DNA of 64,000 nt from a candidate division WS6 bacterium GW2011_GWF2_39_15 (lineage in GTDB: Bacteria; Patescibacteriota; Dojkabacteria; SC72), in contig LBWK01000002.1 in NCBI GenBank assembly GCA_000993565.1, forward strand, positions 160,620-224,619. Reading direction: 5' to 3'. The position numbers and the translations under genes are program-made. Positions 4,071-45,402 of this stretch are shown here, one piece after another. Numbering within the stretch: position 1 is the stretch's first letter; every line of letters starts with the position of its first letter. The notes under the pieces are model-generated. The model did no database searches and was not told where the DNA came from. It saw only the letters and a program-made list of their open reading frames with translations.

Positions 4071-4436
4071 CTATCCTTTTATCTCACCACTCATTGCTTT
4101 AACTTCAGGATTGGTGGAGTGAAGGCATGAGAGTATGTATTCACTGGCCGTCTCTGGATTCATATCTGCACCGAGTGCACAATAGATGTTCTTGCCTTCA
4201 CTGGTAATAGACCTTCTATCGTCAGAAGGAGTGTATACAAGGACTCGCCTATAGAACGTCTCTGGTAAACTACGAACCGTTTCGTCTCGGCTTAGCATAA
4301 GCTCTATAACAGTATCTTCAGACTTTATTTTCCAATCTTGTCCTATGTAGGTTATTTCCTCTTTGGAGTTATTAAGAAGTTGATGACCAATTGTTTCATT
4401 CAAAGAGTGGTTTCCGTTAAATCTTAAGAGTAGCAT
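4071..4436 (-). CDS. hypothetical protein (121 aa)
   Basis: Uninterrupted 121-aa ORF in an AT-rich genome where random ORFs are short. No motif recognised. Confidence 0.4.
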   Translation of the reverse strand: MLLLRFNGNHSLNETIGHQLLNNSKEEITYIGQDWKIKSEDTVIELMLSRDETVRSLPETFYRRVLVYTPSDDRRSITSEGKNIYCALGADMNPETASEYILSCLHSTNPEVKAMSGEIKG

Positions 4437-4550
4437 GGTGTTAGTATTTAAATATGAGTTATACGTATATTATACTACAGGATAATGTGGATATAAATAC
4501 CGTAGGGTATTTTTAATATGATTATCAGTTTCTCAGAAGGTTAAACCGGC

Positions 4551-5483
4551 TTATCTTCCGACTAAATACTGACCCACATTCATAAGATTTTTGCCTTCAG
4601 GTTGTAATTCCAGTATTTCTATCTGTTTATACTTAGTACCTATTACTAATCTCTTTCTGTCCTCCAACCGTTCTCCAGCTTTAAGTTCATTAAACACATC
4701 TAATACTCTAACCTTGAATATTTTCACTCTCTGCTCATCTAAAATTGTCCATGCAACAGGCCAGGGTATAAATGCACGAACCATATGATCAATATCTTCC
4801 GCTGTATGAGTTTTAAAATCAACCTGTGCATTCTCTTTTGCTATGTCAGCCTTGTAGCAATACGTTGCTAAAGTATCATCCTGCTCAACCTCTTTTATTT
4901 TTCCCTTTGTCCATTTATCAAGAATGTCCGGAAGAATCTGTGCACTTATAGCAACTAACCTTTCTCTAAGTGATTGATTTGTATCATCATCCTTTATCTG
5001 CTCCTTAAAGATAGATAGTATAGGACCTGCATCCATTTTATCTATCATCTTAGTTACAGTTATACCGGTCTCCGTCTCTCCTTTCAGAATTGCCATTTGA
5101 ATTGGGACTGCTCCTCTATACTTCGGAAGAATTGAAAAATGGATGTTTATAGCCCCGAACTTTGGATACTCAAGAAAAAATTCTGGAATAATTTCGCCAA
5201 AGGCAATGCATACAACGAGCTCTGGTTTAAATAGTTCAATAGCGTCTTTGTATTTTTCCTCATTTGCTTCTGTAATGAATACAGGAATATTATTATCCAG
5301 CCCGTATTTCTTAACTTCGGTGGGCGTTAATATTTGTTTTCTCCCAACAGGTTTATCCCCTTGAGTTATTAATCCTACAATTTCAAACCTATTGTTCTTG
5401 TTTAGAGTTTTAAGTACGTCAAGTGATTCCCAGTTTGAACCTATAAAGACAGTTTTTATTCTTTCCATGGGATATTCTATCAT
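4551..5483 (-). CDS. fmt: methionyl-tRNA formyltransferase
   Basis: 310 aa. The formyltransferase N-domain (VFIGSNWESLDVLKTL...) and the HFSILPKYRGAVPIQMAILKGETETGITV motif match the Fmt/PurN fold, followed by the C-terminal Fmt domain. Confidence 0.88.
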   Translation of the reverse strand: MIEYPMERIKTVFIGSNWESLDVLKTLNKNNRFEIVGLITQGDKPVGRKQILTPTEVKKYGLDNNIPVFITEANEEKYKDAIELFKPELVVCIAFGEIIPEFFLEYPKFGAINIHFSILPKYRGAVPIQMAILKGETETGITVTKMIDKMDAGPILSIFKEQIKDDDTNQSLRERLVAISAQILPDILDKWTKGKIKEVEQDDTLATYCYKADIAKENAQVDFKTHTAEDIDHMVRAFIPWPVAWTILDEQRVKIFKVRVLDVFNELKAGERLEDRKRLVIGTKYKQIEILELQPEGKNLMNVGQYLVGR

Positions 5484-18545: not shown

Positions 18546-19013
18546 CTACTCTCCCTCTTTGAGAATAGTATATACTTTCTTTCCTCGAGGTGTCTCAACA
18601 GTTACTTTTGTATTGATTTTCTTTCCGACTAATGCCTTACCAAGAGGTGAATTGTGTGATACTTTGTTTTCAATCGGGTTGCTTTCGCTTTCACCGACTA
18701 TCGAAACAACCATCTTCTTGCCTTCATCATCAACAATTGTAACTGTATCACCAATCTCAACAGTGTTCTTTTTGTCGTTTTTTACGGTTTTAGCATTAGC
18801 AATCATGTTCTTAAGCTTCATTATTTCCGCTTCATTTGTTTTGCTGTCTTCAACGGCAAGAGAATATCCGTCGTTTTCACTTAGGTCACCCTGTGCACGC
18901 ATTTCTTCAAGAGTTTTTTGAATAAGGGATCTTTTTTCTGTCTCTCTATACTTTAATTCTTCTTTTAATTTCTTTAGCCCATCAGAGGTCACTAAATATT
19001 CATTTTTCATCAC
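18546..19013 (-). CDS. greA: transcription elongation factor GreA
   Basis: 155 aa. Has the coiled-coil tip RAQGDLSENDGY and a C-terminal FKBP-like domain (SHNSPLGKALVGKKINTKVTVETPRG). Confidence 0.9.
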   Translation of the reverse strand: MMKNEYLVTSDGLKKLKEELKYRETEKRSLIQKTLEEMRAQGDLSENDGYSLAVEDSKTNEAEIMKLKNMIANAKTVKNDKKNTVEIGDTVTIVDDEGKKMVVSIVGESESNPIENKVSHNSPLGKALVGKKINTKVTVETPRGKKVYTILKEGE

Positions 19014-20681: not shown

Positions 20682-21149
20682 ATGATATTTGGCAGAAAAT
20701 ACAAGATCACTTCCCAAAAGAAGAAAGATCTGGAGAAGGAGCTGAACAAGCTTGAAACCAAGGGGAGAAGCGAAATTGCAGACAGACTTGATTTCATAAG
20801 GCAACAGCCTTCCGACGAAGATGATTATCCATTTGCAGACGTTTTAGATGATAAGGAATATCTTGAGAAAAGAATCTCTGAAATAAGAAGTATTTTGAGC
20901 AACTCACAAATAATAGATGATTTAAGCAAGCACTCTGTTGTTGAGGTAGGCTCAAAAGTGAAAGTCGGTTTTGAAGGTTTTGAGGAGGAGTATTTAATAG
21001 TTTCCTCTGTAGAAGCGGATCCTCTTTCTAAGAAGATTTCCGATGAATCCCCTGTTGGTAAGTCTCTTTTGGGGGCAAAGGTAGGTGATACTATTGAGGT
21101 ACAGCTTGGTCATTTACAAAAACAATTCAGAATCCTAAATATAAGTTAA
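20682..21149 (+). CDS. GreA/GreB-family paralog (divergent N-terminal coiled coil, conserved C-terminal FKBP-like domain)
   Basis: The C-terminus (ISDESPVGKSLLGAKVGDTIEV) matches the Gre C-domain. The N-terminal tip is acidic (DEDDY) but diverges from the GreA consensus. Confidence 0.7.
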   Translation: MIFGRKYKITSQKKKDLEKELNKLETKGRSEIADRLDFIRQQPSDEDDYPFADVLDDKEYLEKRISEIRSILSNSQIIDDLSKHSVVEVGSKVKVGFEGFEEEYLIVSSVEADPLSKKISDESPVGKSLLGAKVGDTIEVQLGHLQKQFRILNIS

Positions 21150-22543: not shown

Positions 22544-22879
22544 ATGAAAAGACTAATCTGGAAAACTTTTCTAACAGTCGTTTTCCTTCTTGTCGGAATT
22601 CATTTTGTCAAAGATATTACTCAAGACATACTTTCTCTTGATACATTTCTAAATAAATTTGGGGATATCAACGAAAATATTACAAAGTTTCCTGAGTGGT
22701 TGGTTTGGTTTTATCATTGGGCAATGGTGAATACGTTTTTTGGGGAGATACTGATTCTTCTTTGTATACCTAAGTCATATATGAGAAAGAAGTTCGAATG
22801 GAAAAGAGAAGAGAAAATTATTGTGGGTACTCTTCTTTATATTGTTGTGATGTTTACGGTAGCTTATTTCTTAAGCTGA
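22544..22879 (+). CDS. small membrane protein (111 aa), function unknown
   Basis: Three hydrophobic segments. Confidence 0.45.
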   Translation: MKRLIWKTFLTVVFLLVGIHFVKDITQDILSLDTFLNKFGDINENITKFPEWLVWFYHWAMVNTFFGEILILLCIPKSYMRKKFEWKREEKIIVGTLLYIVVMFTVAYFLS

Positions 22880-24159
22880 GATTCTAATTCTTCAATCCTG
22901 ACTCGTATTTGTTCCATAGTATCTCTATCTCGAACCGTTACGGTATTGTCTTCCAGTGTTTGGTAATCAATAGTGATACACTTAGGTGTTCCAATTTCGT
23001 CTTGGTATCTATACCTTTTACCAATATTACCTCTATCGTCCCACATAACCTTCATGTTCTTTCTGAGACTTTCGTAAACCTCTCGTGCCTTTCCTGTCAA
23101 CTCTTCTTTGTTTCCGACCAGTGGGAACACAGCTGCTTTGTATGCCGCTATTTCAGGCTTTATCTTCAAAACAGTTCTGACCTCTCCGTTCTCTAACTTT
23201 TCTTCTTCATAAGCATCAAAGAGCATAAAAAGGAAGGTTCGGTCTACACCACCTGAAGTCTCTACTATCCATGGGATATATTTCTCATTGGTTATTGGGT
23301 CTGTATAGGAAAGATCTTTTCCTGAGAACTTACTATGTTGCGTTAGATCATAATCGCTTCTCCAGTGTATTCCTTCGTTTTCTGCCCATCCCCAAGGAGC
23401 GAGATATTCAATATCGTAGGCATCTTTTGCATAGAAAATGAGCTTCTCCTTAGGGTGCTGATAGAATCTCAAGTTCTCTGATTTCCTGTAGAGATCTTTA
23501 AAGAAAGACATCCTTTGCTCCTTCCAATACTCAAACCATTTTGCCATATCATCCGGATGTACAAAGAACTGAAGGTCCCACTGCTCAAACTCCCTTGTCC
23601 TAAATGTGAATTTATTAGGAGTGATTTCATTTCTAAATGCTTTACCTATCTGAGCTATACCAAAGGGAACCTTAACTCTTGAAGAATCAACAACATTTTT
23701 AAAATCTAGGTAGATAGTCTGACAGGCTTCACCTCTTAAATATGCCTGCACCTTATCACCTTCAATCACACCTATCTCAGTTTTGAAGAGCATGTTGTAT
23801 TTTCTTGACTCTGTGAAATCTATACTCCCGCATTTAGGACACTTCCCTTCAATATCCTCCGGTCTAAATCGCTGATGGCACTTTTTGCATTCGATTACTT
23901 CATCGGCAAATCCTGTCACATGGCCTGACGCTTCCCATACCTTTGGATGAGTGATAATAGTTCCATCGATACCTACGACGTCATCTCTGTCATCAACCAT
24001 AAACTTCCACCAATGTCTTTTGAGATTGTTCTTCATCTCAACACCTATAGGTCCGTAATCATAGAATCCTCCTATACCCCCGTAGATTTCAGAGTTTGGG
24101 AAAAGTATTCCTCTCCTTTTAGAGAGAGATGTAACTTTAGATAGAAGGTCTTGTTCCAT
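22864..24159 (-). CDS. glyQS: glycine--tRNA ligase, alpha2 (GlyQS/archaeal-eukaryal) type
   Basis: N-terminus RRGILFPNSEIYGGIGGFYDYGPIG. The KAFRNE motif (FRTREFEQ) marks class II. There is a C-terminal anticodon-binding domain. The size of 431 aa fits the GlyQS type. Confidence 0.88.
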   Translation of the reverse strand: MEQDLLSKVTSLSKRRGILFPNSEIYGGIGGFYDYGPIGVEMKNNLKRHWWKFMVDDRDDVVGIDGTIITHPKVWEASGHVTGFADEVIECKKCHQRFRPEDIEGKCPKCGSIDFTESRKYNMLFKTEIGVIEGDKVQAYLRGEACQTIYLDFKNVVDSSRVKVPFGIAQIGKAFRNEITPNKFTFRTREFEQWDLQFFVHPDDMAKWFEYWKEQRMSFFKDLYRKSENLRFYQHPKEKLIFYAKDAYDIEYLAPWGWAENEGIHWRSDYDLTQHSKFSGKDLSYTDPITNEKYIPWIVETSGGVDRTFLFMLFDAYEEEKLENGEVRTVLKIKPEIAAYKAAVFPLVGNKEELTGKAREVYESLRKNMKVMWDDRGNIGKRYRYQDEIGTPKCITIDYQTLEDNTVTVRDRDTMEQIRVRIEELESQLKK

Positions 24160-27128: not shown

Positions 27129-29144
27129 ATGGATGCATCACAAAGAAGTGACCTGATTGGGCAGAGAAAAGTCAGACTGGAGAAAATCGAAAAGTTGAAA
27201 AACATGGGTATTGATCCATATCCTTCAACCAGCCTAAGGAACATCTCTAACCAGGAGATTATTGAAAACTACGGCAAGTATGAGAATAAAATGGTTACTG
27301 TTGCCGGTCGGCTTATGTCGTTTAGGGAACACGGTCAGCTTGTTTTTGGACATATTCAGGACCCTACAACTAGGATTCAGTTATACATAAAATCAGATAC
27401 TCTTCAGAAAACAGATGCCCGAAACCAAACATTAGGTTTTGAAGATCTTGAGCTTTTAGACGTTGGAGATATTGTTGAAGCAACGGGAATTGTAACGAAG
27501 ACTCAGAGAGGAGAGATTTCTATACTTCCGAGTACAGTAAGGCTTTTGACCAAAGCAATCCGACCCCTCCCTGACAAATGGGCGGGATTACAGGATAAAG
27601 AGGCTAAGTTCAGGCAAAGATACCTGGATCTAATAATGGATCCAACCAAGAAAGATAAGTTTGTTTCAGCCGCAAAAATCCTCTTTGCTATTAGATCCTT
27701 CTTGAACGATAGAGGGTTTCTGGAGATTAAGGTGCCGGTACTCCAACCTTTATACGGCGGTACTAACGCAAGACCGTTCAGCACGTATATGAACGCTTTA
27801 GGTACAGACTTCTACCTTGCCATTGCCCATGAGCTGTATCTTAAAAGGCTCATAACAGCAGGATTTGAGAATGTATATAACATGACAGGGTACTTTCGAA
27901 ATGAAGGTATAGACCGTACTCATAACCCTGAGTTTCAAATGCTTGAGACTATGACTGCGTATAAAAACTATGAGTATAACATGGAGCTTCTTGAAAGCCT
28001 GTATAAACATGTCGCCAAGAATGTAATGAACAAAAATGTATATAAAGTAGCGGGACAGGAAATAGATCTAATGGGCAAATGGAATAAGATCATGATGATC
28101 GATGCTATCAAGAAGTATGCTGGAGTTGATTTTGACAGAATAAAAACTGTTCAGGATGCCCACAAAACTCTTGATGAGCTGGGATACCAGGGAACAAAAC
28201 CAGATACAATTGGAGAGTGCATGAAAGAGGTCTTTGAGCTGAAAGTTGAGCACCAGCTTATACAGCCGACTATTGTTTACGGCCATCCAGTTGAGATATC
28301 TCCTCTTGCGAAGAGGATGACAACCGACCCTCGATTTGTAGAAAGATTTGAGGTGTTTATTGGCGGTGTTGAACAGGGAGATAACTGGAGTGAGCTTAAT
28401 AATCCTGTTGAGCTTTTTGAGAGGTTCAAAGAGCAGAGTCTCTCCAAAAAGATGAAGGAGAGTGATTCTGCACACCCTATGGACATAGAGTTTATCGAAA
28501 CTATGGAATACGGTATGCCTCCGACAACAGGCTTAGGACCAGGCATTGAAAGATTCCAGATGCTGTTTACAGAGTCAGAATATATAGACGATGTAATATT
28601 CTTCCCGTTAATGAAACCTGCTCCGGTTACAAGGCTTCAAAAAGAAATTTATGGTGAAGAGGCCTTAGAAGGGAATGAAAAACTTCTAGGAAAAGGGTCA
28701 GGGAAGAAGAAAGACATTGAACAGGATATGTCAAAAAAAATGGTTGTAGTGCTTAATAACTCGCTGGAAGGTTGGAAGATTACAAATACGGTGGGGCATC
28801 TATGCGCATATCTTGGAAACAACATAGAAAAGAATAGATTTGCAAGTGTTGACTCATTTGAGTTTGCTGACGGTAACACGATACCATCCAATTCACAGTA
28901 TCCGGTAGTTGCACTTGGTGCTACAGACTCTCAGCTCCATAACCTTTATGAGAGGGTAAAAGAGAAGGGAGATGTTATCCACTTAGTCTATACCAAGGAG
29001 ATGCTGGATTTTAAAGAGGATAAAGATCTTTCCAAAGCCATTTCCAAAATGAGTATGAAAGATGGTGAGATATATGGAATAGGTATATTTGCTGATGTTG
29101 ATACCATTAAGGAGCTCACTGGAAAATTCAGCCTGTATAAATAG
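27129..29144 (+). CDS. lysS: lysine--tRNA ligase (class II) fused to a C-terminal PTH2/DUF2000-like domain
   Basis: N-terminal OB anticodon-binding domain. Class II motifs: FLEIKVPVLQ, FRNEGIDRTHNPEFQMLE and GLGPGIERFQML. About 170 extra C-terminal residues end in ...GEIYGIGIFADVDTIKELTGKFSLYK, which parallels the PTH2 C-terminus (...GP...IDKVTGHLKLY). Confidence 0.85.
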   Translation: MDASQRSDLIGQRKVRLEKIEKLKNMGIDPYPSTSLRNISNQEIIENYGKYENKMVTVAGRLMSFREHGQLVFGHIQDPTTRIQLYIKSDTLQKTDARNQTLGFEDLELLDVGDIVEATGIVTKTQRGEISILPSTVRLLTKAIRPLPDKWAGLQDKEAKFRQRYLDLIMDPTKKDKFVSAAKILFAIRSFLNDRGFLEIKVPVLQPLYGGTNARPFSTYMNALGTDFYLAIAHELYLKRLITAGFENVYNMTGYFRNEGIDRTHNPEFQMLETMTAYKNYEYNMELLESLYKHVAKNVMNKNVYKVAGQEIDLMGKWNKIMMIDAIKKYAGVDFDRIKTVQDAHKTLDELGYQGTKPDTIGECMKEVFELKVEHQLIQPTIVYGHPVEISPLAKRMTTDPRFVERFEVFIGGVEQGDNWSELNNPVELFERFKEQSLSKKMKESDSAHPMDIEFIETMEYGMPPTTGLGPGIERFQMLFTESEYIDDVIFFPLMKPAPVTRLQKEIYGEEALEGNEKLLGKGSGKKKDIEQDMSKKMVVVLNNSLEGWKITNTVGHLCAYLGNNIEKNRFASVDSFEFADGNTIPSNSQYPVVALGATDSQLHNLYERVKEKGDVIHLVYTKEMLDFKEDKDLSKAISKMSMKDGEIYGIGIFADVDTIKELTGKFSLYK

Positions 29145-29244: not shown

Positions 29245-32200
29245 GTGAAAAGATCTGTCCAAATCAATTTAAGAAGCTTCTTTACAAGGAAAATCACCAT
29301 ATTTAAGTGGCAGTTCAATCTTTTTGCATTCGTATGTATTTCGATAGGTGTTGTTTTAGGCCTTTATGCGGGAGCAGTAAATATTTTCAAATCATATGCT
29401 GTTAACGATACTTTTCAGACTTGGACATTCAACATAGCCAATGCAAATAACTATACTTATGATAGTGAATTTATAGCCGTTAATAATAGCGGTGCACATT
29501 TGGGAGTGAACAAATTAACAAATGGGAGTTTGGATACTGATTTAGCAGGATGGAGTGATGCCCAAAGCTATATTATTAAGGATGAGTTCACAGATACAAG
29601 AGCTGGTGGTAGTGTTAACGGAACAAGTGCGACACCAACAGGAGGGCTGAGAAGTGTAACAGATACAAATAGTAAATTGAGTATAGGTGGAGGGTCTTTA
29701 ATATTTACAACCGGTGGGGTTGCTGCCGGTGACCCAGGATTACGATATAGTTCTATGAGTAGAACACCGGGAAGAATTATCTATGGGAAAATTACGCTTG
29801 ATAATGTTGGTAATAGCGGTTATACAACTTTTGGTTTTGATGATAACACAGTGACAAGGATTGAAGATGGTGCCCTGTTCTATGACGGACGGGTATATCA
29901 CTTTGGAGCTGGGGCAAATGTCGGGGAAGATGTGTCAAAAGGGGTGGAGTATGATACCGCAGTTATTCAACGAAGCTCCGGGTCATACCTGTTTCTTAAA
30001 GGTGGGATATATACAAGCTGGACTTTGATAAGTATCAGTAACACAGGATCATTTGCAACGACATATCCTGGTTTCGGGGTTTATACTAGCACGATCAGTG
30101 CATTGGCTGCGGGTTTGATCCGCGTCCCTACTACAACATGGATACCAACGCCTTTAGCGTACGATACTTTTACCAGATCTGATGGGAGTGCAGGAAGTAC
30201 AGAAGCAGCTGGCCCGGATAGTCAAACCACTGAAAGGCTTTCATGGAGTACCGGTACTATTTCGAGTAATGGCATGAAAATAACTCCTTCTGTGGGTAGT
30301 GAACTTGTAACAGATGGTGGAATGGAAAACTGGACAAGTGCAACCAATCTAACAAGCTGGACTGAATACTTAGCTGGAACCTCAACTCTAAATCAAGAAT
30401 CATCGATCACTCACAGTGGAAGTTACTCCTCGCGATCAGACATTGATGCTTCTGGTAGTTATGCACAGGCAGTGCAATCCCTTTCCGGGAGTATTGGTGA
30501 TTGGGTAGCTTCATCTGTATGGGGAAGAGCTTCAGCTAGTGGTAAGACATTTTACTCGATGTCTACGGGTTCACGAATTCTTACTGAAGCAGGGTCTGAA
30601 AATCCTGGAACTACATGGACTCGATATTATAACAGTTGGAGGGTGCTGTCCTCTGGAGATCTTAGTATTTGGCCGGTATACAGATCTAGTGCCTCTTCAT
30701 CTTCTTTATACCGTGATGATATCTCGGTTAAAAAACTCAGTCTTCCTTCTCTCTTCTCGGTATTATCTACCTCAGATTCAGATGTTCTTGCAGAGGTTAA
30801 TGTCACTATGGAACCTGGAAATCCTGCTGGACTAGTCCTAAATCTTGATTCAACAAGCAATCCACAGAATTTTGTAATAGCTTATCACGATGGTGGTAAT
30901 GTGAAACTGGAAAAATCTGTTGGTGGAGTATATACCTCTGTTCAAAGTACAGCTGTTACATATGTTGCTGGCGCTCCTTTGAAGGTAACAAAGACGGGTA
31001 CAAAGTATAAAATTTATTATAATAATGCTTTGGTAGGATCTGAACAGACAATTTCGGATGCAGGCATCATTAGTAATACAAATCACGGTGTATTTTCTAC
31101 ATATTCCGAAAACACATTTGATAATTTTGCCCTTTGGGCAAGAGGTTCCGGAGGTGAGTATAATGACATTCCTGCAGAGGATTTAACGGCGACATATGAG
31201 ACTACAACTAAGTATAGCGGAGCAGGTAGTGCAAAACTTATTACTTCCGGAAACAATGCTAACTTCCTTCAGAGTATTAATACCGGCGATACCAATGTTT
31301 ACTCTTTAGTTACCTACGCCTATACAGACGGTAGTGCTGTAACAAGTTCTGATCTTGTTCTGTATCACGACGGTTCAGTTGTACCAACTCAATTTACATC
31401 TGTAGGTGGAGGCTGGTACAGGTTAACAGGAACTATAACCGGTGCAGCATCGAGTAAAGATGTTGGAATCAGAGTTAAGGCAGGGAAAACTGTGTATGTT
31501 GATGAATTTCTTCTTTATAAACTCGGGGAAGTAACATTAACAAACTCCAAATTTGAAAGTGATGTTAGTGGATGGAGTGGAACACAATCATACCTGCTTC
31601 AAGATGAGTTTACAGATACAAGAGCAGCTGGGAGCGTTAATGGAACTAGTGCGACACCGACTGGAGGAGTCCGAACAGTTGCGGATACAAGTAGTCAGTT
31701 AAGTATTGGAGGAGGAAGAGTGCAAATCGGAGATGCACCGGCAAGTTACACAAATATTTCCTATCCCCAAATTACAAGGCAGTCTGGACGAGCATTAATA
31801 GGAAATCTTAAGAATAATTTTTCGTATAGTGCTCCAATGTTTGGTTTCGATGATACAGTTGGAGGGCAAATTGCTGATGGAGTCCGTTTTGCAAGCGGAG
31901 GAGGTTTTAGCATCTATGACGGTGCTCTGACTGCAGGTGTCGGAACATATGTAGCGGGAACTGATTATACGCTAGCGGTAATACAGAGAGCTGCAGGTAA
32001 CTATTATTTCATAAAGGGAGGGGCATACTCAAATTGGTCTCTTCTATACATGACTAACAATTCGACAGGAAACAGATATCCTAGTTTAAGTGCTCAAACC
32101 CCTATTACAAGTGTTTCCTCTGATTATATTAGAGTTCCCTCATTATCATGGCTTCCTACACCTCTTGCATATGATACCTTTACAAGAGCAGACGGAGTAA

Positions 32201-35200
32201 TAGGAAATTCTGAAACGACTGGACCTGATTCCCAAACTACACCTTCACTAGTATGGACAGGAGGAACAATATCGGGAAATAAAATTACTATTACGCCTGA
32301 AATAGGCTCAGAATTAGTTACAAATGGAAATATGGAAATAGGTGACCCTCCTAGCAGTTGGAGTAGTACGTCAACTTTTGATGGTGTGGCAGATGAAAGA
32401 ACAGGTGGTAGTGGTGCTCAATCAGTAGATATTACTGGAGTATCTGGTGGCGTCTTTCAGGACCTTTTATCCACAAATGGAACCTGGGTTTCAATATCAA
32501 ACTGGCAAAAAAATATTACTGGTGGGTTTCCAAAGGTTTTTGTCTATGGAGGTCCTGGTTATACAAACCCGATTTATGACAAATACGGAAGTAGCGATGG
32601 TTCTTGGCACAATTATATAGGCTCAGGGAGGGTTACTTCAACTGCACCAAGAGTTTATTTATATTTAACCACTACTGGGCATGAGTATCGTTATGATGAT
32701 ATCTCAGTCAAACCTTTAACCCTTTCATCCCTTTTCTCCACTGTCTCCACTTCGGATTCTGATGTTATGGCAGATGCTAATGTAACTCTAACTTCCGGTA
32801 CTCAAGCTGGACTAGTTTTAAATCTTGATTCAACGAGTAATCCTCAGAACTTTGTAATTGCATATCACGACGGAACAAATGTAAAACTCGAAAAATCAGT
32901 AGCAGGAGTATATACAACAGTACAGACAACTGCTGTAACATACTCAGCGGGTGCACAGCTCAGAGTTATTAAAGATGGTACTAAGTATCGTGTATATTAC
33001 AACAACACCCTTGTAGGAGCAGAACTTACAATCTCTGATGCGGGTATTATAAGTAATACAAAACACGGCCTTTTCTCAACATACTCTGGTAATACCTTTG
33101 ACAATTTCTCACTCTTTGCAAGGGGAACCGGTGGTGAATACACTGATATTCCTGCAGAAGATGTGACTGCTACATACAGTACTGTTCATAAATATACAGG
33201 TAATGGAAGTGCCTTGCTTTCAACAGGAGGTAATGACTCGAACTTTGTACAGAGTATAAACGTAGGTGATACATCTCAATACTCTCTGGTTGCATATGCA
33301 TATACTGATGGAAGTGCCGTAACGGCAAACGATTTGGAGCTATATTATAATGACTCAGTTCTTTCAACAACCTTTACGGATATGGGAGGTGGCTGGTACA
33401 AACTTAGTGGTGTGTTCACCGGTATTGCATCAAGCAAGGATCTTGGGGTGAGAGTAAAAGCAAGCAAAACAGTTTATGTCGATGATATATCACTATACCA
33501 GCAGTCTGCATACTCAATATTTAATACCGACGGATACTATAACCAGTTGGTCACATCATGGGATTCATTCTCTTCAGATGTAACCACCCCGGGAAGCAGC
33601 AGTATTAAATATCAAGTATGTACTAACGATGGAGACGTCTGTGAAAGCGGAGTGGGAGCAAACTGGAAATATTGGAACGGCAGTGTATGGTCTGCTGCCT
33701 CGAACCTTACAACACATACTAATACCGCAGCTCAACTTACCCAGTCAGTTATGCAGGAGCTGGACACGTTGACTCAGAAGATCTCAGTAAAAGTGATACT
33801 AAACCCTGATGGAATTAACTTCCCGAATATTGCAAATATGATTGTGGGTATGACTACAGATACAACTGACCCAGTCAATGCGACCCTATCCAGGTTTATG
33901 AAAACACCAACACTATCATGTGACTATACTGATAACTGCTGGACTGGGGTATCCACGCCTATTTTTGAGTGGGAAGGCGGAGATGATAATGAAAGCGGAT
34001 TGAAAGGATATTGTTTGTATTTTGGAACCGATGAAGCAGGAGACCCTGCTCATAACAAAGGGAAACTTGGAACATCCCCTGTTCCTGTTTCAGGAACATC
34101 ATGCCAATTCATTATCTCAGGTGAACAGCTGGATCTCTCGACAGCAGGATACCTTGGCACTGCTTTATCTAACGATGATACTTTCATAACATCAGCAAAT
34201 ACGTACTACCTCAATATTAAGAGTGTTGATAATGCAGGGAATGTCGTAAATGTAAGCGAAACAATTAGATTCCGATATGATGAAACTGCTCCTACGAATG
34301 TAAGTTATATATCTACACCTTCGGGTAACTTCTCTAATGTAGTTGATATGAGCTTCTCATGGCCGGTCTCCGGAGCAGGAATTTCACATGATGACGAATC
34401 TGATGTCTTAGGATGGCAGTATCAAATAAACTCTATGAGTGGAGAGTGGCAGGGTACTCAACATTCCGACCTTTATGATATTGATTATATTCCTTTAGGA
34501 GAATCGTCATATACATTAGCTGAAGTGAGGGACGGATCTTTTATAGTTTCAGGCGATAACATTATTTACTTCAGAACTGTAGATAATGTAGGTAATTTCT
34601 CCGGGACTTCGACTATAAGAACCGGAAATATATCCTATGGAGGCGAGGCACCTGATTTTGCTCCTACAGATATTGTCACGGTTACACCTACAACCAGCGA
34701 AACAAACAGCTATGCACTCTCGTGGCCGGCTGCGACGCCTTCCGTGGGTACAGAAGTGGCTCATTACTACTACATGATTAATACCCCGCCTCCTTCTACA
34801 CTTAATACGCTTCAGAGTAATACGGCAGCCTATCTGGATAACGGTACCTCATTAACGGTTTCTGCCAGAGCAATGTCAAATGTGAACAAGGGTTCAAACA
34901 CCGTTTATGTGGTTGCGGTTGATGATGCAGATGTGCCAAACTACTCTCCAAGCAACTACATAACGGGGACGTTTACTTTGGACTCTACAAATCCCGATAA
35001 TGTTGGAAATCTGGTGGTCTCAGACTCTTCAATTAAATCCCAATCCCAATGGAATGTTACCCTTACATGGACTGCTCCAGAGTATCAGGGGGCAGGTAAC
35101 CTATCATATCTTGTATACAGGTCGGAAGATGGAATTAGTTTTATTCAGGTAGGGTCAAGCTCAGGTTTTTCGTATGTAGATAGTGCTCCTGAATCAAGGC

Positions 35201-36528
35201 AGTATTTCTATAAAATTGTTACAAAGGACGGTGCTGATGCACTATCATCAGGTACAAATACCGTTACTATAATTCCGACAGGAAAATGGACTGCACCGGC
35301 AGACCTTGAGTCAGCTCCTTTTGTGAGTAGTATAACAACCAAGAAAGCACAGATAACCTGGAGTACATCTAGAGCCTCGGATTCAAAAATTGCATTTGGG
35401 ACAAAATCCGGACTGTATTTCGAAGAGGAACCGAGCAATTCAGATCAAGTAACGAGTCATTCAATTAATCTCTCAGGTCTCAACCCCAATACCACATACT
35501 TTTATGTTGCTAAGTGGACAGATGAGGATGGTAACACGGGGATCTCTGAAGAGAAATCGTTTAAGACGCAGGCCGCTCCGGTTATAAAAAATGTGTTGGC
35601 AAAAAATATAGGTTTAAGTTCTGCAATCATACAGTTTACCTCCAAGGGATCCAGCAAGGTGAAGATATATTATGGTGAAAGCTCAAACTTCGGAGGAGTC
35701 AAAGAAGTTCCGACGTCACCTATTGAGACTACATATACAGTTGAGTTAACTGGTCTTAAAGATGGCACCAAGTACTTCTATAAATTGAATGCTTTTGATG
35801 TTGAGACCAGTGAGTATGACGGGACTATTTTAGACTTCATCACCCTTCCTAAGCCGAGAATATCCGAGATAGTGCTCCAAGAGGTCTCCGGTACTTCACA
35901 GACAACAATCCTTGTTACATGGCAGACAAATACTGAGGTCTCCTCTATTATCACATACTATCCTGAGGGCAGGATTGATCAGGCAAGAGATGAGGTGATT
36001 GTTACCTTAAAGAAAGGGGAACATAAGATGATTATACGGGGATTACTTCCTCAAACGAGTTATTATCTTGTTGTTAAAGGTAGGGATAGGATCGGAAATG
36101 AAGCTGTCTCTGATTCGTATAAGTTTGCGACATCAACAGACAGTCGTGCACCGCAGATTTCCGGGATGCTGGTCGAAGGATCTACGATTCCCGCTGTATC
36201 GTCAACCGCTGAAGAGACAAAAGCTCAGCTTATCGTCTCATGGAATACGGATGAACCTGCAACATCACAAATTGAATATGGAGAAGGGACTGGTACATCG
36301 TACCCGCAGAAGACACAACTTGATAATAATCTGACTTTAAATCATATCGTAATTATTTCGGGTTTGAGTCCTTCAAAGGTATATCATTTAAGAGTCCTTT
36401 CAAAAGATAAGGCCGGTAATGAGGGTAAATCAATAGATACTGTCACTATTACGCCTAAATCAACAGATAATGCACTTAATTTGGTTATAACTAATTTACA
36501 GGAAATATTTGGTGTTCTTGGAAGGTAA
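29245..36528 (+). CDS. giant cell-surface protein (2427 aa): N-terminal anchor, two ~670-aa tandem repeat modules (lectin/LamG-like, inferred), C-terminal fibronectin-III-like domains
   Basis: Single uninterrupted ORF. N-terminal hydrophobic segment (LFAFVCISIGVVLGLYAGAV). Internal duplication visible at both protein and DNA level. Four FN3-like units near the C-terminus (for example KAQITWSTSRASDSKIAFGT...TTYFYVAKWTDEDGNTG). Confidence 0.8.
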   Translation: MKRSVQINLRSFFTRKITIFKWQFNLFAFVCISIGVVLGLYAGAVNIFKSYAVNDTFQTWTFNIANANNYTYDSEFIAVNNSGAHLGVNKLTNGSLDTDLAGWSDAQSYIIKDEFTDTRAGGSVNGTSATPTGGLRSVTDTNSKLSIGGGSLIFTTGGVAAGDPGLRYSSMSRTPGRIIYGKITLDNVGNSGYTTFGFDDNTVTRIEDGALFYDGRVYHFGAGANVGEDVSKGVEYDTAVIQRSSGSYLFLKGGIYTSWTLISISNTGSFATTYPGFGVYTSTISALAAGLIRVPTTTWIPTPLAYDTFTRSDGSAGSTEAAGPDSQTTERLSWSTGTISSNGMKITPSVGSELVTDGGMENWTSATNLTSWTEYLAGTSTLNQESSITHSGSYSSRSDIDASGSYAQAVQSLSGSIGDWVASSVWGRASASGKTFYSMSTGSRILTEAGSENPGTTWTRYYNSWRVLSSGDLSIWPVYRSSASSSSLYRDDISVKKLSLPSLFSVLSTSDSDVLAEVNVTMEPGNPAGLVLNLDSTSNPQNFVIAYHDGGNVKLEKSVGGVYTSVQSTAVTYVAGAPLKVTKTGTKYKIYYNNALVGSEQTISDAGIISNTNHGVFSTYSENTFDNFALWARGSGGEYNDIPAEDLTATYETTTKYSGAGSAKLITSGNNANFLQSINTGDTNVYSLVTYAYTDGSAVTSSDLVLYHDGSVVPTQFTSVGGGWYRLTGTITGAASSKDVGIRVKAGKTVYVDEFLLYKLGEVTLTNSKFESDVSGWSGTQSYLLQDEFTDTRAAGSVNGTSATPTGGVRTVADTSSQLSIGGGRVQIGDAPASYTNISYPQITRQSGRALIGNLKNNFSYSAPMFGFDDTVGGQIADGVRFASGGGFSIYDGALTAGVGTYVAGTDYTLAVIQRAAGNYYFIKGGAYSNWSLLYMTNNSTGNRYPSLSAQTPITSVSSDYIRVPSLSWLPTPLAYDTFTRADGVIGNSETTGPDSQTTPSLVWTGGTISGNKITITPEIGSELVTNGNMEIGDPPSSWSSTSTFDGVADERTGGSGAQSVDITGVSGGVFQDLLSTNGTWVSISNWQKNITGGFPKVFVYGGPGYTNPIYDKYGSSDGSWHNYIGSGRVTSTAPRVYLYLTTTGHEYRYDDISVKPLTLSSLFSTVSTSDSDVMADANVTLTSGTQAGLVLNLDSTSNPQNFVIAYHDGTNVKLEKSVAGVYTTVQTTAVTYSAGAQLRVIKDGTKYRVYYNNTLVGAELTISDAGIISNTKHGLFSTYSGNTFDNFSLFARGTGGEYTDIPAEDVTATYSTVHKYTGNGSALLSTGGNDSNFVQSINVGDTSQYSLVAYAYTDGSAVTANDLELYYNDSVLSTTFTDMGGGWYKLSGVFTGIASSKDLGVRVKASKTVYVDDISLYQQSAYSIFNTDGYYNQLVTSWDSFSSDVTTPGSSSIKYQVCTNDGDVCESGVGANWKYWNGSVWSAASNLTTHTNTAAQLTQSVMQELDTLTQKISVKVILNPDGINFPNIANMIVGMTTDTTDPVNATLSRFMKTPTLSCDYTDNCWTGVSTPIFEWEGGDDNESGLKGYCLYFGTDEAGDPAHNKGKLGTSPVPVSGTSCQFIISGEQLDLSTAGYLGTALSNDDTFITSANTYYLNIKSVDNAGNVVNVSETIRFRYDETAPTNVSYISTPSGNFSNVVDMSFSWPVSGAGISHDDESDVLGWQYQINSMSGEWQGTQHSDLYDIDYIPLGESSYTLAEVRDGSFIVSGDNIIYFRTVDNVGNFSGTSTIRTGNISYGGEAPDFAPTDIVTVTPTTSETNSYALSWPAATPSVGTEVAHYYYMINTPPPSTLNTLQSNTAAYLDNGTSLTVSARAMSNVNKGSNTVYVVAVDDADVPNYSPSNYITGTFTLDSTNPDNVGNLVVSDSSIKSQSQWNVTLTWTAPEYQGAGNLSYLVYRSEDGISFIQVGSSSGFSYVDSAPESRQYFYKIVTKDGADALSSGTNTVTIIPTGKWTAPADLESAPFVSSITTKKAQITWSTSRASDSKIAFGTKSGLYFEEEPSNSDQVTSHSINLSGLNPNTTYFYVAKWTDEDGNTGISEEKSFKTQAAPVIKNVLAKNIGLSSAIIQFTSKGSSKVKIYYGESSNFGGVKEVPTSPIETTYTVELTGLKDGTKYFYKLNAFDVETSEYDGTILDFITLPKPRISEIVLQEVSGTSQTTILVTWQTNTEVSSIITYYPEGRIDQARDEVIVTLKKGEHKMIIRGLLPQTSYYLVVKGRDRIGNEAVSDSYKFATSTDSRAPQISGMLVEGSTIPAVSSTAEETKAQLIVSWNTDEPATSQIEYGEGTGTSYPQKTQLDNNLTLNHIVIISGLSPSKVYHLRVLSKDKAGNEGKSIDTVTITPKSTDNALNLVITNLQEIFGVLGR
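29515..33510 (+). repeat. tandem duplication of a ~2.0-kb coding module within the giant gene
   Basis: Unit 1 (about 29515-31530) and unit 2 (about 31531-33510) share long conserved blocks, for example DEFTDTRAGGSVNGTSATPTGG and PQNFVIAYHDG.NVKLEKSV.GVYT...TAVTY.AGA...GTKY..YYNN.LVG...ISDAGIISNT.HG.FSTYS.NTFDNF...ARG.GGEY.DIPAED.TATY. Confidence 0.85.
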
Positions 36529-42148: not shown

Positions 42149-42700
42149 ATGACAAGAGAAAGAGCTTGGGAGTTAGTAAAAGAGTATACAAAAAATAATA
42201 ACTTAGTTAAGCATATGCTGGCGGTTGAAGCTGCCATGAGGGCATATGCTAAAAAGTTTGGACAGGACGAAGAGAAATGGGGTGTTGTTGGGTTAATACA
42301 TGATTTCGATTACGAGAAAATGGGTGATCAGCACCCATCAGAATGGGGGTACGAGATACTAAGACAGGAGGGTGTGACAGAAGACATGATTGATGCGATC
42401 AAAGGCCATGGGCTTCGGGATGATTCAGCTTCAAGAAAAGATAATATGGCTCGAGCTCTGTTTGCTTCAGATGAGCTTACAGGTTTTATCGTTGCCGTTG
42501 CACTGGTTAAGCCTGATCAGTTATCAGGAGTGGACGTTAAATCTGTTACGAAAAGGTTTAAGGACAAAGGCTTTGCAAGAGGGGTTGTAAGGGAGGATAT
42601 TATAAACGGAGCAAAGGAACTTAATATTGATCTTGATGAACATATACAGTTAGTCATCGATGCAATGAAAGAGATCAAGGAGGACTTAGGATTGAAGTAA
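42149..42700 (+). CDS. HD-domain phosphohydrolase (HDIG-type)
   Basis: H...HD motif: HMLAVEAAMRAYA...VGLIHDFDYEK and, further downstream, AIKGH. Confidence 0.7.
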   Translation: MTRERAWELVKEYTKNNNLVKHMLAVEAAMRAYAKKFGQDEEKWGVVGLIHDFDYEKMGDQHPSEWGYEILRQEGVTEDMIDAIKGHGLRDDSASRKDNMARALFASDELTGFIVAVALVKPDQLSGVDVKSVTKRFKDKGFARGVVREDIINGAKELNIDLDEHIQLVIDAMKEIKEDLGLK

Positions 42701-44130: not shown

Positions 44131-45402
44131 ATGTTAGATATTAAAAGAATAGTAGAAGATAAAGAAGTGGTGAAGAAAGCCCTTCTTAAGAGAATGGAGG
44201 AGAAAGATTTTAACTTAGATGAGATTACCGATGCATATGATGAAAGAAAGGAGAAGCAGCAGGAGTATGATAACCTGAGAGCCAAGCAGAAAGGATTCAA
44301 TGATCAGATGTCTAAGGTTGAAAAAGGAAGTGACGAATTCAAGAAGTTAATAGTTGAGCTTAAAAATCTCTCAGAAGAAGTAAAAGAAGCCGAAGAGGAA
44401 TTGAGGGAAGCAGAGGAGGAGCTCAAAAAGAAGCTTGAGGTACTACCTAACCTTCCTGATGATGATGTCGTAGGTGGTGGGAAAGAAAACAACAGAGTGA
44501 TAAGGGAGATAGGGGAAAAACCTGAATTTGGTTTCAAAATTAAGGATCATTTGGAGATTGGTGAGGGTCTGGGAATGATAGATATGGATCGTGCAACTAA
44601 GATGGCTGGTTCCAATTTTGCAATGTATACAGGTCTAGGAGCACAGCTAGAGTGGGCGATGATTAACTATTTTATATCTGAACATATAAAAGACGGATAT
44701 AAAATGATTCTTCCACCTCATCTTCTTGTTGAGGAATCCGGATATACAGCAGGACAGCTTCCGAAGTTCAAGGACGATGTTTACTGGGTCCAGGATGGAA
44801 GTATGCTTCTTCCCACTGCTGAGACAGCACTTGCGAATATATATAGAAATGAGCTACTCAATGAAGCAGATCTTCCCATTAAGTTATTTGGTTATACACC
44901 GTGCTATAGGAGAGAAGCAGGGGGATATAGAGCAAATGAAAGAGGATTGCTTCGAATGCACCAGTTTAATAAGGTTGAGATGTTCCAGTATACTACACCT
45001 GAACAGTCAGAAGCTGCCTTGGAAGAGTTACTGAACAAAGCAACAAACCTTGTTGACGGTTTAGGACTTCATTACAGAGTCAGTCAGCTTGCGGCCGCAG
45101 ATTGTTCTGCCGGGGCAGCTAAGACATATGATGTTGAAGTTTGGTTACCATACCTTCAAACATACTATGAAGTGAGTTCAATCTCCAATGTCCGTGATTA
45201 TCAGGCGAGAAGGGGAAACATAAAGTATAAGACTGGTGAAGGAGATAATAAGTATGTTCACATGCTTAATGCTTCAGGACTTGCTACTAGCCGCTTAATG
45301 GTGGCTGTGCTTGAAACTTATCAGAATGAGGACGGCTCACTCACTGTTCCAAAGGCTCTTCAGCAGTTTGTCGGAAAGGAAAAAATAGAGAAGGGTAAAT
45401 AA
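44131..45402 (+). CDS. serS: serine--tRNA ligase
   Basis: N-terminal coiled-coil arm, then class II motifs (YTPCYRREAGGYRANERGLLRMHQFNKVEMF; motif 3 region NASGLATSRLMVAVLE). Confidence 0.9.
   Translation: MLDIKRIVEDKEVVKKALLKRMEEKDFNLDEITDAYDERKEKQQEYDNLRAKQKGFNDQMSKVEKGSDEFKKLIVELKNLSEEVKEAEEELREAEEELKKKLEVLPNLPDDDVVGGGKENNRVIREIGEKPEFGFKIKDHLEIGEGLGMIDMDRATKMAGSNFAMYTGLGAQLEWAMINYFISEHIKDGYKMILPPHLLVEESGYTAGQLPKFKDDVYWVQDGSMLLPTAETALANIYRNELLNEADLPIKLFGYTPCYRREAGGYRANERGLLRMHQFNKVEMFQYTTPEQSEAALEELLNKATNLVDGLGLHYRVSQLAAADCSAGAAKTYDVEVWLPYLQTYYEVSSISNVRDYQARRGNIKYKTGEGDNKYVHMLNASGLATSRLMVAVLETYQNEDGSLTVPKALQQFVGKEKIEKGK

Follow-up and report, generated by a model that had tools for sequence, protein, structure and literature searches.

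A DUF2000 domain of PTH2-like fold fused to the C terminus of lysyl-tRNA synthetase in Patescibacteria and its possible role in tRNA proofreading

We found that, in the 64-kb stretch of DNA analyzed here (termed the window), a single gene joins what is by sequence a complete lysyl-tRNA synthetase (LysRS) of class II to a C-terminal DUF2000 domain (PF09391), a family that diverges as a separate branch within the superfamily of peptidyl-tRNA hydrolase 2 (PTH2). This LysRS fusion is widespread across many bacteria with tiny genomes, often beside known tRNA-proofreading modules, and DUF2000 may be a proofreading domain for LysRS.

A LysRS-linker-DUF2000 fusion protein

The fusion is encoded on the plus strand at positions 27129..29144 by one open reading frame of 671 aa plus a stop codon (29142-29144, plus strand), and its sequence is exactly as quoted in the original prediction, which was made by eye. 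The OB-fold anticodon-binding domain of LysRS (residues 56-139; 27294..27545, plus strand) matches PF01336 (tRNA_anti-codon) with an E value of 6.4e-13, and the class II (subclass IIb) catalytic core (residues 157-495; 27597..28613, plus strand), which ends in ...FFPLM, matches PF00152 (tRNA-synt_2) with an E value of 1.9e-69. The protein scores well above the cut-offs of two NCBIfam models, with 513.6 bits for lysS_bact (TIGR00499; equivalog cut-off, 427.6) and 557.3 for NF001756 (cut-off, 468). Residues 8-496 align collinearly with residues 4-491, from a total of 493, of Geobacillus stearothermophilus LysRS (3a74). In this alignment, motif 2 (FRNEGIDRTHNPEF) and motif 3 (GLGPGIER) are intact, and the patterns FRNEGI..HNPEF and GLG.G..R are common to both proteins. 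Pfam, the lysS_bact score, and the 3a74 alignment all agree with the canonical core ending in ...FFPLMK that had been recognized by eye, and the gene would encode an active class II LysRS.

The core is followed by a linker of 40 residues (496-535; 28614..28733, plus strand), delimited by direct reading and by comparison with fused relatives. Lys, Glu, and Gly abound in its sequence, KPAPVTRLQKEIYGEEALEGNEKLLGKGSGKKKDIEQDMS, which has a net charge of 0. The length of about 40 residues given in the original prediction holds, while the Gly/Lys-rich composition given there has to be revised. Position 28614, where that prediction started its feature, corresponds to residue 496, the first of the linker, and the domain proper spans 28734-29141. 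Linkers of fused relatives range from 11 to 48 aa, and two motifs are conserved in the clade, T.xQKEIYGEE right after the core and QDxS right before the domain. The IYGEEY motif is also present in HD-fused LysRS relatives. An internal translation start at the MSKKM boundary was considered and rejected, as a stretch rich in purines, located about 20 nt upstream of the ATG, is too distant and too weak to support separate translation.

The C-terminal part (residues 536-671; 28734..29141, plus strand) is a DUF2000 domain with a PTH2-like alpha/beta fold. It matches PF09391 over the full length of the profile (positions 1-133 of 133, E=7e-23, 81.5 bits versus a cut-off of 25), which bears out the PTH2/DUF2000-like domain proposed from the sequence; the extension has clear similarity to this group and is not an unrelated domain. 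Two Pfam families had been named as candidates, and while DUF2000 was recovered, PF01981 (PTH2) gave no match in the window protein even at E<=10. A word-index homology search with the domain alone as the query returned no matches.

An artifact, be it a misassembly, a sequencing frameshift, or two neighboring genes read through as one, is effectively refuted. Many database entries of the family are fragments of 180 to 240 aa, and one protein (P0016) has a chimeric-looking domain match, both of which could suggest such an origin. However, the identical 671-aa protein was called on 8 independent contigs, the longest of 721 kb (groundwater metagenome ERZ909592), and one open frame runs uninterrupted across the junction in more than 40 diverged orthologues with 26-83% identity. 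The short proteins probably derive from contig ends or, in a UGA-recoded lineage, from gene calls made with the standard code. We rejected "LysRS C terminus plus DUF2000" as a genuine short form for a case from this lineage (L043), in which 7 in-frame TGA codons were found; UGA is a sense codon there, and calling with the standard code splits the gene. The other forms of 180 to 240 aa, mostly on short contigs, are probably contig-end fragments.

Relation to PTH2 and conserved residues

We then analyzed the fold and the conserved residues of the domain. An AlphaFold model built from a 31-sequence alignment was confident (the single-sequence model had a pLDDT of 43), and a fold search with it gave 2GAX and PTH2 enzymes as the only strong structural neighbors. 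The predicted fold is that of 2GAX, the solved representative of DUF2000. Profile-profile comparison of DUF2000 and PTH2 by hhalign yielded a probability of 92% and an E value of 6e-7 over 109 aligned columns and reproduced the PTH2-like N- and C-terminal motifs that had been spotted by eye. We conclude that the two families are homologous at the superfamily level. The DUF2000 profile reaches the PTH2 structure 1q7s only at an E value of about 1.

Conservation was evaluated in 47 fused and 67 standalone DUF2000 domains (domain numbering in what follows). The most conserved polar residues of the family are N18 (100% of the fused and 97% of the standalone domains) and H22 (94% and 97%), which in the window protein form the helix alpha-1 segment N553-x3-H557 (28785..28799, plus strand). 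A second motif follows strand beta-3 (E624-M625...D631; 28998..29021, plus strand) and comprises E89 (81% and 52%), M90 (100% and 90%), and D96 (96% and 70%). The third, T664-G-K-F-S-L669 at the C terminus (29118..29135, plus strand), contains T129 (100% and 94%) and L134 (98% and 88%). In the hhalign alignment, H22 pairs with the invariant His of PTH2, and LTGKFSL pairs with the PTH2 motif ITGxLKL, in which T129 and L134 are aligned to the invariant T and L. N18/H22 and E89/M90 occupy positions equivalent to the helix alpha-1 and the post-beta-3 loop that bear K18 and D86 in PTH2. The window protein retains the near-invariant residues of the family (N553, H557, M625, T664, and L669), with the exception of G120, which is A655. 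Ala is found at this position in 10/47 fused domains and in none of the 67 standalone ones, all of which have Gly. Constraint on the site is about equal in fused domains to that in standalone domains, or above it, which indicates that the site is under selection.

In Sulfolobus solfataricus PTH2, we take K18 (GKGK loop) and D86 and T90 (DAGxT motif) to be the catalytic residues; K18 and D86 are said to have been found essential by Fromant et al. in 2005. K18, D86, and T90 fall in invariant columns of the PTH2 alignment. In DUF2000, the counterpart of K18 is K15, a position that varies (K, Q, E, R, S, and others), that of D86 is K88, which is variable as well, and the DAGxT motif is replaced by TxEM, after which a 12-residue helical insertion is found. 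Since K18 and D86 are not conserved and PF01981 does not match, the chemistry of PTH2 cannot be transferred to DUF2000.

Loss of the canonical PTH2 catalytic residues would suit a noncatalytic accessory that has given up hydrolase chemistry and handles the acceptor end or the tRNA, or docks proteins, for instance to pass Lys-tRNA-Lys on to EF-Tu or to retain other factors. The Ala of the window copy at G120 would suit it as well. Nevertheless, we consider this explanation quite unlikely. Asn, His, Asp, and Thr, the near-invariant residues, are polar, and several are adjacent in hhalign to active-site residues of PTH2; such a pattern is expected more typically of a site for catalysis or for a specific ligand than of a surface contacting the RNA backbone. 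Furthermore, the domain is slightly acidic (net charge of -2 in the window and of -1.6 on average among fused domains) and the linker has no net charge, in contrast to the basic appendages known to bind tRNA, and the modules that replace or accompany the domain (B3/4, AlaX-like, and HD; see below) are enzymes.

Our searches for DUF2000, PF09391, Atu0240, and 2GAX retrieved no published function or activity from the searchable literature, and a literature search for a PTH2-like domain on an aminoacyl-tRNA synthetase (aaRS) found none.

Distribution of the fusion

An exhaustive HMMER search, complemented by a profile query, gave 108 matches to the domain, and every aaRS-sized protein among them contains a LysRS core. 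The eight most divergent hosts had their best scores against LysRS models; that the low-scoring hosts could be AspRS or AsnRS was ruled out, as the LysRS models score better. In total, we recovered about 46 diverged proteins with the fusion, which come from Dojkabacteria, from other Patescibacteria, and from the UGA-recoded lineage. The survey of LysRS architectures in relatives thus revealed a recurrent fusion, with LysRS as the only aaRS host. We also scanned species-representative genomes with a 7-sequence alignment, in which about 20 of the 34 loci were fusions, among loci whose recovery is biased toward the subfamily of the window. Clustering at 40% identity divided the fused domains into at least 7 groups, and most of these groups also contain standalone domains, which points to repeated fusion or fission.

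Standalone DUF2000 genes lie mostly among nontranslation genes, with an ACT-like protein as the recurring neighbor, and none of 14 such loci had a LysRS within 4 kb. In one other lineage, a standalone copy is located two genes from an unfused lysS and directly upstream of cysS. The tail of about 135 aa in Blastocatellia-type LysRS was evaluated as a cryptic DUF2000 and gave no match.

Partner modules and the HD protein of the window

Evaluation of the domain architectures revealed that DUF2000 shares its chain with known editing modules in several proteins. We found a LysRS-B3/4-DUF2000 architecture (P0003), a B3/4-DUF2000 architecture (P0054), and a LysRS-DUF2000-AlaX-like architecture with a tRNA_SAD domain (P0072). 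In the closest LysRS cores, B3/4 or HD occupies the C-terminal position instead of DUF2000.

The window also encodes a standalone HD-domain protein of 183 aa (42149..42700, plus strand), identified with Pfam HD, NCBIfam HDIG, and blastp. Over its full length, it is homologous to HD modules that are fused to LysRS or to LysRS-DUF2000 in close relatives, and blastp against the tails of P0145, P0170, P0173, P0193, P0105, P0076, and P0194 gave 30-39% identity, with E values of 1e-35 to 1e-43. On the basis of these fusions, we tentatively associate the HD protein with LysRS-DUF2000.

In close relatives, LysRS or LysRS-DUF2000 carries a particular HD family that is a separate gene in the window, which raises another explanation, namely, that the target of DUF2000, and perhaps of the HD module with it, is a non-tRNA by-product of LysRS, such as Ap4A or related dinucleotides, lysyl-adenylate analogues, or misactivated amino acid derivatives. 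LysRS is a classic Ap4A producer, and the best PDB sequence matches of the HD protein are Ap4A hydrolases of the YqeK type. In addition, the neighbor that recurs beside standalone DUF2000 is an ACT-like gene, and proteins of this family usually bind amino acids. Yet we regard such small-molecule housekeeping as improbable: the YqeK similarity is weak (E value of about 0.003) and confined to the generic H...HD motif, all characterized proteins with the PTH2 fold have acyl-tRNA as their substrate, the B3/4 and AlaX-like partners point to tRNA substrates, and binding of nucleotides or amino acids by DUF2000 is purely putative.

A possible role in post-transfer editing

Class II LysRS is a textbook mischarger that attaches several amino acids to its tRNA and is devoid of a domain for post-transfer editing (PMC4173786). 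LysRS from Streptococcus pneumoniae makes Ala-, Thr-, and Ser-tRNA-Lys, and the Escherichia coli enzyme was reported to lack post-transfer editing (PMC4173786); LysRS-II is listed without any editing domain in the domain table of AARS Online (PMC11580382). This mischarging creates a need for an editing module. From the fold and the context, we propose, as the most likely role of DUF2000, quality control by hydrolysis at the acylated 3' end of tRNA-Lys, i.e., post-transfer editing, and we give this proposal slightly less than an even chance.

In such a mechanism, LysRS would hold the tRNA body via its OB domain and core, and the flexible 40-residue linker would tether DUF2000 to the LysRS C terminus, with a reach that we expect to be sufficient. 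The CCA-acyl end would move out of the synthetic site and enter a pocket of the tethered domain, where the conserved residues are predicted to cluster. The pocket would be lined by helix alpha-1 (N553 and H557) and by the post-beta-3 loop (E624, M625, and D631), and the ester bond of wrongly acylated tRNA-Lys would be cleaved there. The result would be a post-transfer editing domain on a synthetase that is normally without one. Binding of the 3' end, catalysis, the residues performing the chemistry, and the acyl groups removed are all predictions of this model.

Several observations agree with this proposal. The slightly acidic character of the domain is more in keeping with a pocket that receives the acyl-adenosine end than with a generic appendage of basic character that binds RNA. 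A hydrolytic function is strengthened by LysRS being the sole aaRS host, by the co-occurrence with, or replacement by, B3/4 and AlaX-like modules, and by repeated fusion and fission. In layout, the window DUF2000 resembles editing modules in its cis tether to the synthetase and in its association with such modules. The cis-acting aminoacyl- or peptidyl-tRNA hydrolase function put forward in the original prediction is, in our analysis, plausible.

The second half of that pair deserves attention, as the only characterized relatives of the fold are peptidyl-tRNA hydrolases. DUF2000 could be a PTH-type hydrolase for N-blocked or dropped-off peptidyl-tRNA-Lys, whose tether to LysRS would allow the immediate recharging of the freed tRNA-Lys. 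The presence of DUF2000 in one chain with B3/4 or AlaX-like modules suggests that these are nonredundant, which fits another substrate class (N-blocked or peptidyl-tRNA) equally well and agrees with a split of labor between free aminoacyl and N-blocked substrates. In addition, the lethality of E. coli pth(Ts) is suppressed by overproduction of tRNA-Lys, which has been read as starvation for Lys-tRNA-Lys (PMC9973355, citing Heurgue-Hamard 1996), but this reading has itself been questioned (PMC9973355). The original prediction saw no bacterial pth, and indeed neither Pth1 nor canonical PTH2 was found in any of the six frames of the window; however, the window covers just 64 kb of a contig of about 721 kb. 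To our knowledge, pth is near-universal in bacteria. Against peptidyl-tRNA recycling, the catalytic Lys and Asp of PTH2 are not conserved in DUF2000, and a standalone DUF2000 exists in Agrobacterium (Atu0240, 2GAX). Bacteria such as Agrobacterium possess an essential Pth1, and as Agrobacterium-type bacteria thus have both, DUF2000 is unlikely to be a general substitute for Pth. Overall, we consider peptidyl-tRNA-Lys recycling unlikely.

Extending the editing proposal, DUF2000 as a whole might be an unrecognized family of aminoacyl-tRNA proofreading domains, with the PTH2 fold and an Asn/His site of its own, that has been recruited for cis editing by LysRS, and the LysRS C terminus of Patescibacteria might be a dock for swappable DUF2000, B3/4, AlaX-like, and HD modules. 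We advance this broader view as a possibility on which we are more doubtful. An editing role, if true, would provide the first testable function for DUF2000, which has had a crystal structure (2GAX) since 2006 and no function, and would bring a further fold into the set of domains that proofread tRNA. It would also show that bacteria with ultrasmall genomes manage translation fidelity by quality control concentrated on one synthetase, and the fidelity of LysRS could be engineered on a scaffold that is natural and compact.

Comparison with known systems

Other LysRS proteins likewise combine the core with an extra module. The model of LysX (MprF-LysRS; NCBIfam NF002821), which also has a class II LysRS core, matches the window core, with 440 bits for the window protein versus a cut-off of 742. 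Its extra module is an N-terminal membrane lysyl-phosphatidylglycerol synthase without a PTH2 fold, whereas the window protein has DUF2000 at the C terminus. In eukaryotic LysRS, the addition is again N-terminal and is a basic, noncatalytic tRNA-binding helix, also without a PTH2 fold (PMC3532385).

Atu0240 from Agrobacterium tumefaciens (PDB 2GAX), the structural-genomics representative of PF09391, is a free-standing protein of 135 aa with no assigned function. It is 20% identical to the window domain, which in contrast is covalently tethered to LysRS. In the alignment of the two, Atu0240 is without the His of helix alpha-1 (NVTAFL versus NTVGHL in the window), whereas the window domain keeps the N-x3-H signature.

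Pth2 (PTRH2, Bit1; PF01981; PDB 1WN2, 1XTY, 2ZV3, 1Q7S, 1RLK, and 3ERJ) has in common with DUF2000 the helix alpha-1 His and the C-terminal (L/I)TG...L motif. It is tied to the acylated 3' end of tRNA by its known function and DUF2000 by context. DUF2000 conserves neither the GKGK Lys nor the DAGxT residues Asp and Thr and, besides the insertion after beta-3, has about 8 extra residues before beta-2. The charge also differs, with 4/5 PTH2 sequences at +2 to +6 and DUF2000 slightly acidic. Finally, PTH2 stands alone as an enzyme of archaea and eukaryotes and is not carried by a synthetase, unlike the LysRS-fused DUF2000 described here.

None of the known editing families (CP1, INS/YbaK, AlaX/tRNA_SAD, B3/4, and DTD-like) was detected in the window protein with Pfam, and fold searches gave only DUF2000 and PTH2. 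The layout is nonetheless that of class II editing domains (B3/4 of PheRS-beta, the domains of AlaRS and ThrRS together with AlaX, and INS/YbaK of ProRS), in which a module is tethered by a linker to a class II core. DUF2000, with a fold unrelated to all known editing domains, would be a putative deacylase in this same arrangement.

Domain architecture of the LysRS fusion

A single ORF of the window (27129..29144, + strand) encodes a 671-aa LysRS-DUF2000 protein. The original prediction described a canonical LysRS core ending near FFPLMKP, and this was borne out by Pfam, which placed an OB anticodon-binding domain at residues 56 to 139 and a class II Asp/Lys/Asn catalytic core at residues 157 to 495; by the lysS equivalog model (NCBIfam), which scored 513.6 bits against a cutoff of 427.6; and by G. 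stearothermophilus LysRS (3a74), of which residues 4 to 491 of 493 aligned end to end with residues 8 to 496, motifs 2 and 3 being intact. FFPLMK lies where solved bacterial LysRS chains end. The ORF has exactly the C-terminal extension sequence first quoted. The linker (28614-28733, +) has the predicted 40 residues; its composition is Lys/Glu/Gly rich and neutral in net charge rather than Gly/Lys rich. The DUF2000 domain (28734-29141, +), followed by the stop codon, covers residues 536 to 671 and matches PF09391 over its full length (Pfam, profile positions 1 to 133 of 133, E = 7e-23). A T.xQKxIYGEEY motif right behind the FPLMKP of the core is common to the DUF2000-fused and HD-fused LysRS of the clade, and a QD[FT][ST] motif immediately precedes DUF2000 in the linkers of the window protein and its relatives. 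The domain boundary, QDMSKKMVVV in the window, resembles the N terminus of standalone DUF2000 proteins. Eight contigs, one of them a 721-kb groundwater-metagenome contig, carry the identical 671-aa protein, whose nearest named relatives are Candidatus Dojkabacteria (WS6); we consider the chance of an assembly artifact negligible.

The fusion lies among the housekeeping genes usual for a bacterium with a small genome, including GreA, TrmD, two further aminoacyl-tRNA synthetases, ribosomal proteins, ABC transporters, and a 2,427-aa surface-type protein. The ORF of the latter (29245-36528, +) starts 100 nt downstream of the fusion, has repeated internal blocks with only faint FN3 and PhoD_N-type Pfam matches, probably encodes a giant surface protein, and is followed by ABC-transporter ATPase and permease genes. 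Two GreA/GreB-family genes (18546-19013, -; 20682-21149, +), within 2.6 kb of each other, flank a tRNA-Glu, a UDG-family gene, and trmD. No appended domain was found on the window's 431-aa class II synthetase (class IIa core and HGTP anticodon domain; 22864-24159, -) or on its SerRS (44131-45402, +). In line with the original remark that no bacterial-type pth is visible there, a search of the 64-kb window in every frame found neither Pth1 nor canonical PTH2.

Membership of DUF2000 in the PTH2 superfamily

The sole PDB sequence match of the domain was Atu0240 (2GAX), with E = 0.023 for the single sequence and 4e-17 for a 52-sequence profile. Since this profile reached human PTH2/Bit1 at an E value of only about 1, kinship with PTH2 called for a fold-level test. 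An AlphaFold model of the domain, built from a 31-sequence alignment, was confident (pLDDT 91.1, pTM 0.83), and with it Foldseek retrieved 2GAX (E = 1.6e-10) and, besides, only the PTH2 structures 2ZV3, 1Q7S, 1RLK, 3ERJ, and 1XTY (probability 1.00), the next match having E = 0.5. We then compared DUF2000 by hhalign with a PTH2 profile made of five PTH2 sequences rebuilt from PDB alignments, which aligned 109 columns with 92% probability (E = 6e-7). The two profiles match in their first strand and helix, H22 of DUF2000 falls on the invariant PTH2 His, and the C-terminal LTGKFSL pairs with ITGxLKL of PTH2, as expected from the proposal that the termini of the extension mirror those of PTH2. Of the predicted likeness to DUF2000 and PTH2, the full-length DUF2000 match and the PTH2 fold held, and the PF01981 (PTH2) profile itself found no match on the window protein in a Pfam search. 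From the Pfam, Foldseek, and hhalign results, we conclude that the window domain is a genuine DUF2000 domain and that the DUF2000 family forms a divergent branch within the PTH2 superfamily; the prediction of a LysRS with a C-terminal PTH2/DUF2000-like domain was right.

Distribution of fused and free-standing DUF2000

When 1.84 billion cluster representatives were searched exhaustively with HMMER, 108 relatives of the domain were recovered, and every synthetase-sized match among them has a LysRS core; the eight most divergent hosts, considered as possible AspRS or AsnRS, are LysRS by NCBIfam. Among 34 loci recovered from species-representative genomes, about 20 carry the fusion, in genomes named as Dojkabacteria, "Saccharibacteria," Daviesbacteria, and Levyibacteriota, one Limnocylindria, and one "Gammaproteobacteria" MAG, and about 14 carry free-standing genes of ∼140 aa, in Kaiserbacteria, Colwellbacteria, Paceibacterota, and others. 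One free-standing DUF2000 gene lies directly upstream of cysS, two genes from an unfused lysS; no lysS was found within 4 kb at the other 14 free-standing loci. The fused domains fall into at least 7 clusters at 40% identity, most of which contain free-standing members, and the nearest neighbor is free-standing for 10 of 47 fused domains, which implies repeated fusion or fission.

"Partial" database entries of 180 to 240 aa look like fragments. In the one such case examined, L043 (3579-5561; JGI 3300010216, 1.19-Mb contig), the LysRS-DUF2000 gene was called as five pieces and forms one unbroken frame with 7 in-frame TGA codons when UGA is read as Gly. This indicates a code 25 (UGA-recoded) lineage; gene calling with the standard code broke up the gene, hence its 186-aa "PF00152+PF09391" database entry. 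P0016 (398 aa) joins part of a DEAD/ResIII helicase to the C-terminal portion of a LysRS core and DUF2000; it probably stems from chimeric assembly or a truncated gene call and does not represent a real architecture. At L035, a second, N-terminally truncated DUF2000-like ORF (4416-4712, -; 98 aa, ending in LTKKFSLWRS) directly follows the standalone gene, downstream of it and on the opposite strand. Several lineages, only 24 to 43% identical to one another, have an ACT-like gene of ∼220 aa (faint match to Pfam ACT_9) in divergent orientation close upstream of standalone DUF2000, and in one instance it precedes a fused lysS-DUF2000 (L012, 2532-3227; L026, 2719-3588; L033, 3216-3935; L035, 3512-3877; L037, 5225-5875; also L017, 1349-2020, and L010, 899-1564; all -). 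No homologue of this gene was found in the window.

Accessory modules at the LysRS C terminus

DUF2000 is present on most of the 120 LysRS cores closest to that of the window, interspersed with LysRS-B3/4, LysRS-HD, LysRS-DUF2000-HD, and unfused enzymes, and every module is C-terminal. The LysRS C terminus is thus a site of accessory-module exchange in this clade. The survey of relatives recovered LysRS-B3/4-DUF2000 (P0003), B3/4-DUF2000 with no synthetase (P0054), LysRS-DUF2000 with an AlaX-like tRNA_SAD domain (P0072), and LysRS-DUF2000-HD (P0105, P0076, and P0193). B3/4 (the editing domain of PheRS-beta) and AlaX-like domains are established modules of aminoacyl-tRNA editing. Patescibacterial LysRS carry B3/4, B3/4 with DUF2000, or DUF2000 with AlaX-like tRNA_SAD; P0151, P0181, and P0186 are further relatives with such other modules. 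P0208 and about 30 similar LysRS (620 to 648 aa; Blastocatellia in some sources) have a ∼135-aa C-terminal tail without a match to DUF2000 or any Pfam family, which is another uncharacterized LysRS appendage.

The HD modules on LysRS form one specific family, of which the window encodes a standalone full-length homologue (HD/HDIG, 183 aa; 42149-42700, +) with 30 to 39% identity (E = 1e-35 to 1e-43) to the modules that the close relatives P0145, P0170, P0173, P0193, P0105, P0076, and P0194 carry C-terminally on LysRS or LysRS-DUF2000. The best PDB sequence matches of this family are YqeK-type Ap4A hydrolases, and DUF2000 together with the HD module might process a small by-product molecule, for example Ap4A; however, the match is weak (E of about 0.003) and covers the generic H...HD motif only, and we regard such a role as improbable.

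Proposed function and comparison with PTH2

The architecture is already in databases, where precomputed Pfam shows PF00152+PF09391 and the proteins are named "lysine--tRNA ligase" or "DUF2000 family protein"; our literature search turned up nothing published on DUF2000 or Atu0240, nor on a synthetase of any kind that bears a PTH2-like domain. The window protein is a synthetase with an appended module of putative hydrolase type, unusual in its LysRS host, its PTH2-like fold, and the exchange of the module with others at one site. A hydrolytic function, as originally inferred, is plausible, and the only activity of the PTH2 fold known to us is cleavage of the acyl-tRNA ester. Together with the LysRS-only host, a tightly selected polar site, and the B3/4 and AlaX-like modules that accompany or replace DUF2000, this leads us to favor, tentatively, that the tethered domain would serve as hydrolytic quality control of the acylated 3' end of tRNA-Lys, i.e., post-transfer editing. 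E. coli LysRS is reported to lack post-transfer editing, and Ala-, Thr-, and Ser-tRNA-Lys are formed by the S. pneumoniae enzyme (PMC4173786); the AARS Online domain table lists LysRS-II without an editing domain (PMC11580382).

Invariant in the five PTH2 sequences are the GKGK-loop Lys and, in DAGxT, the Asp and Thr residues (K18, D86, and T90, numbering checked by counting), which in the work of Fromant et al. from 2005 were reportedly catalytic in S. solfataricus PTH2. By hhalign, K18 and D86 correspond to the variable K15 and K88 of DUF2000 and are not conserved. This loss speaks against recycling of peptidyl- or N-blocked tRNA-Lys, and so does the finding of DUF2000 in Agrobacterium, which presumably carries Pth1. 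In favor of recycling, DUF2000 may complement, not duplicate, co-fused editing domains, and E. coli pth(Ts) shows a tRNA-Lys starvation phenotype, a reading that is disputed (PMC9973355); overall, we judge recycling unlikely.

DUF2000 has a near-invariant polar set of its own: N18 (100%), H22 (94%), M90 (100%), D96 (96%), T129 (100%), and L134 (98%) in 47 fused domains, and N18 (97%), H22 (97%), M90 (90%), G120 (100%), and T129 (94%) in 67 standalone ones (positions within the domain). A noncatalytic domain for tRNA handling or docking seems to us quite unlikely. Returning to the editing proposal, N18/H22 (helix α1) and E89/M90 (after strand β3) adjoin the K18 and D86 columns of PTH2 in the hhalign alignment, from which we infer their placement in space; this suggests that DUF2000 may use the pocket of PTH2 with different chemistry. 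Where PTH2 has DAGxT, DUF2000 has TxEM and, behind it, a helical insertion of 12 residues. DUF2000 is also slightly acidic (net charge of -2 in the window, mean of -1.6 in fused domains), in contrast to net charges of +2 to +6 in four of the five PTH2 sequences.
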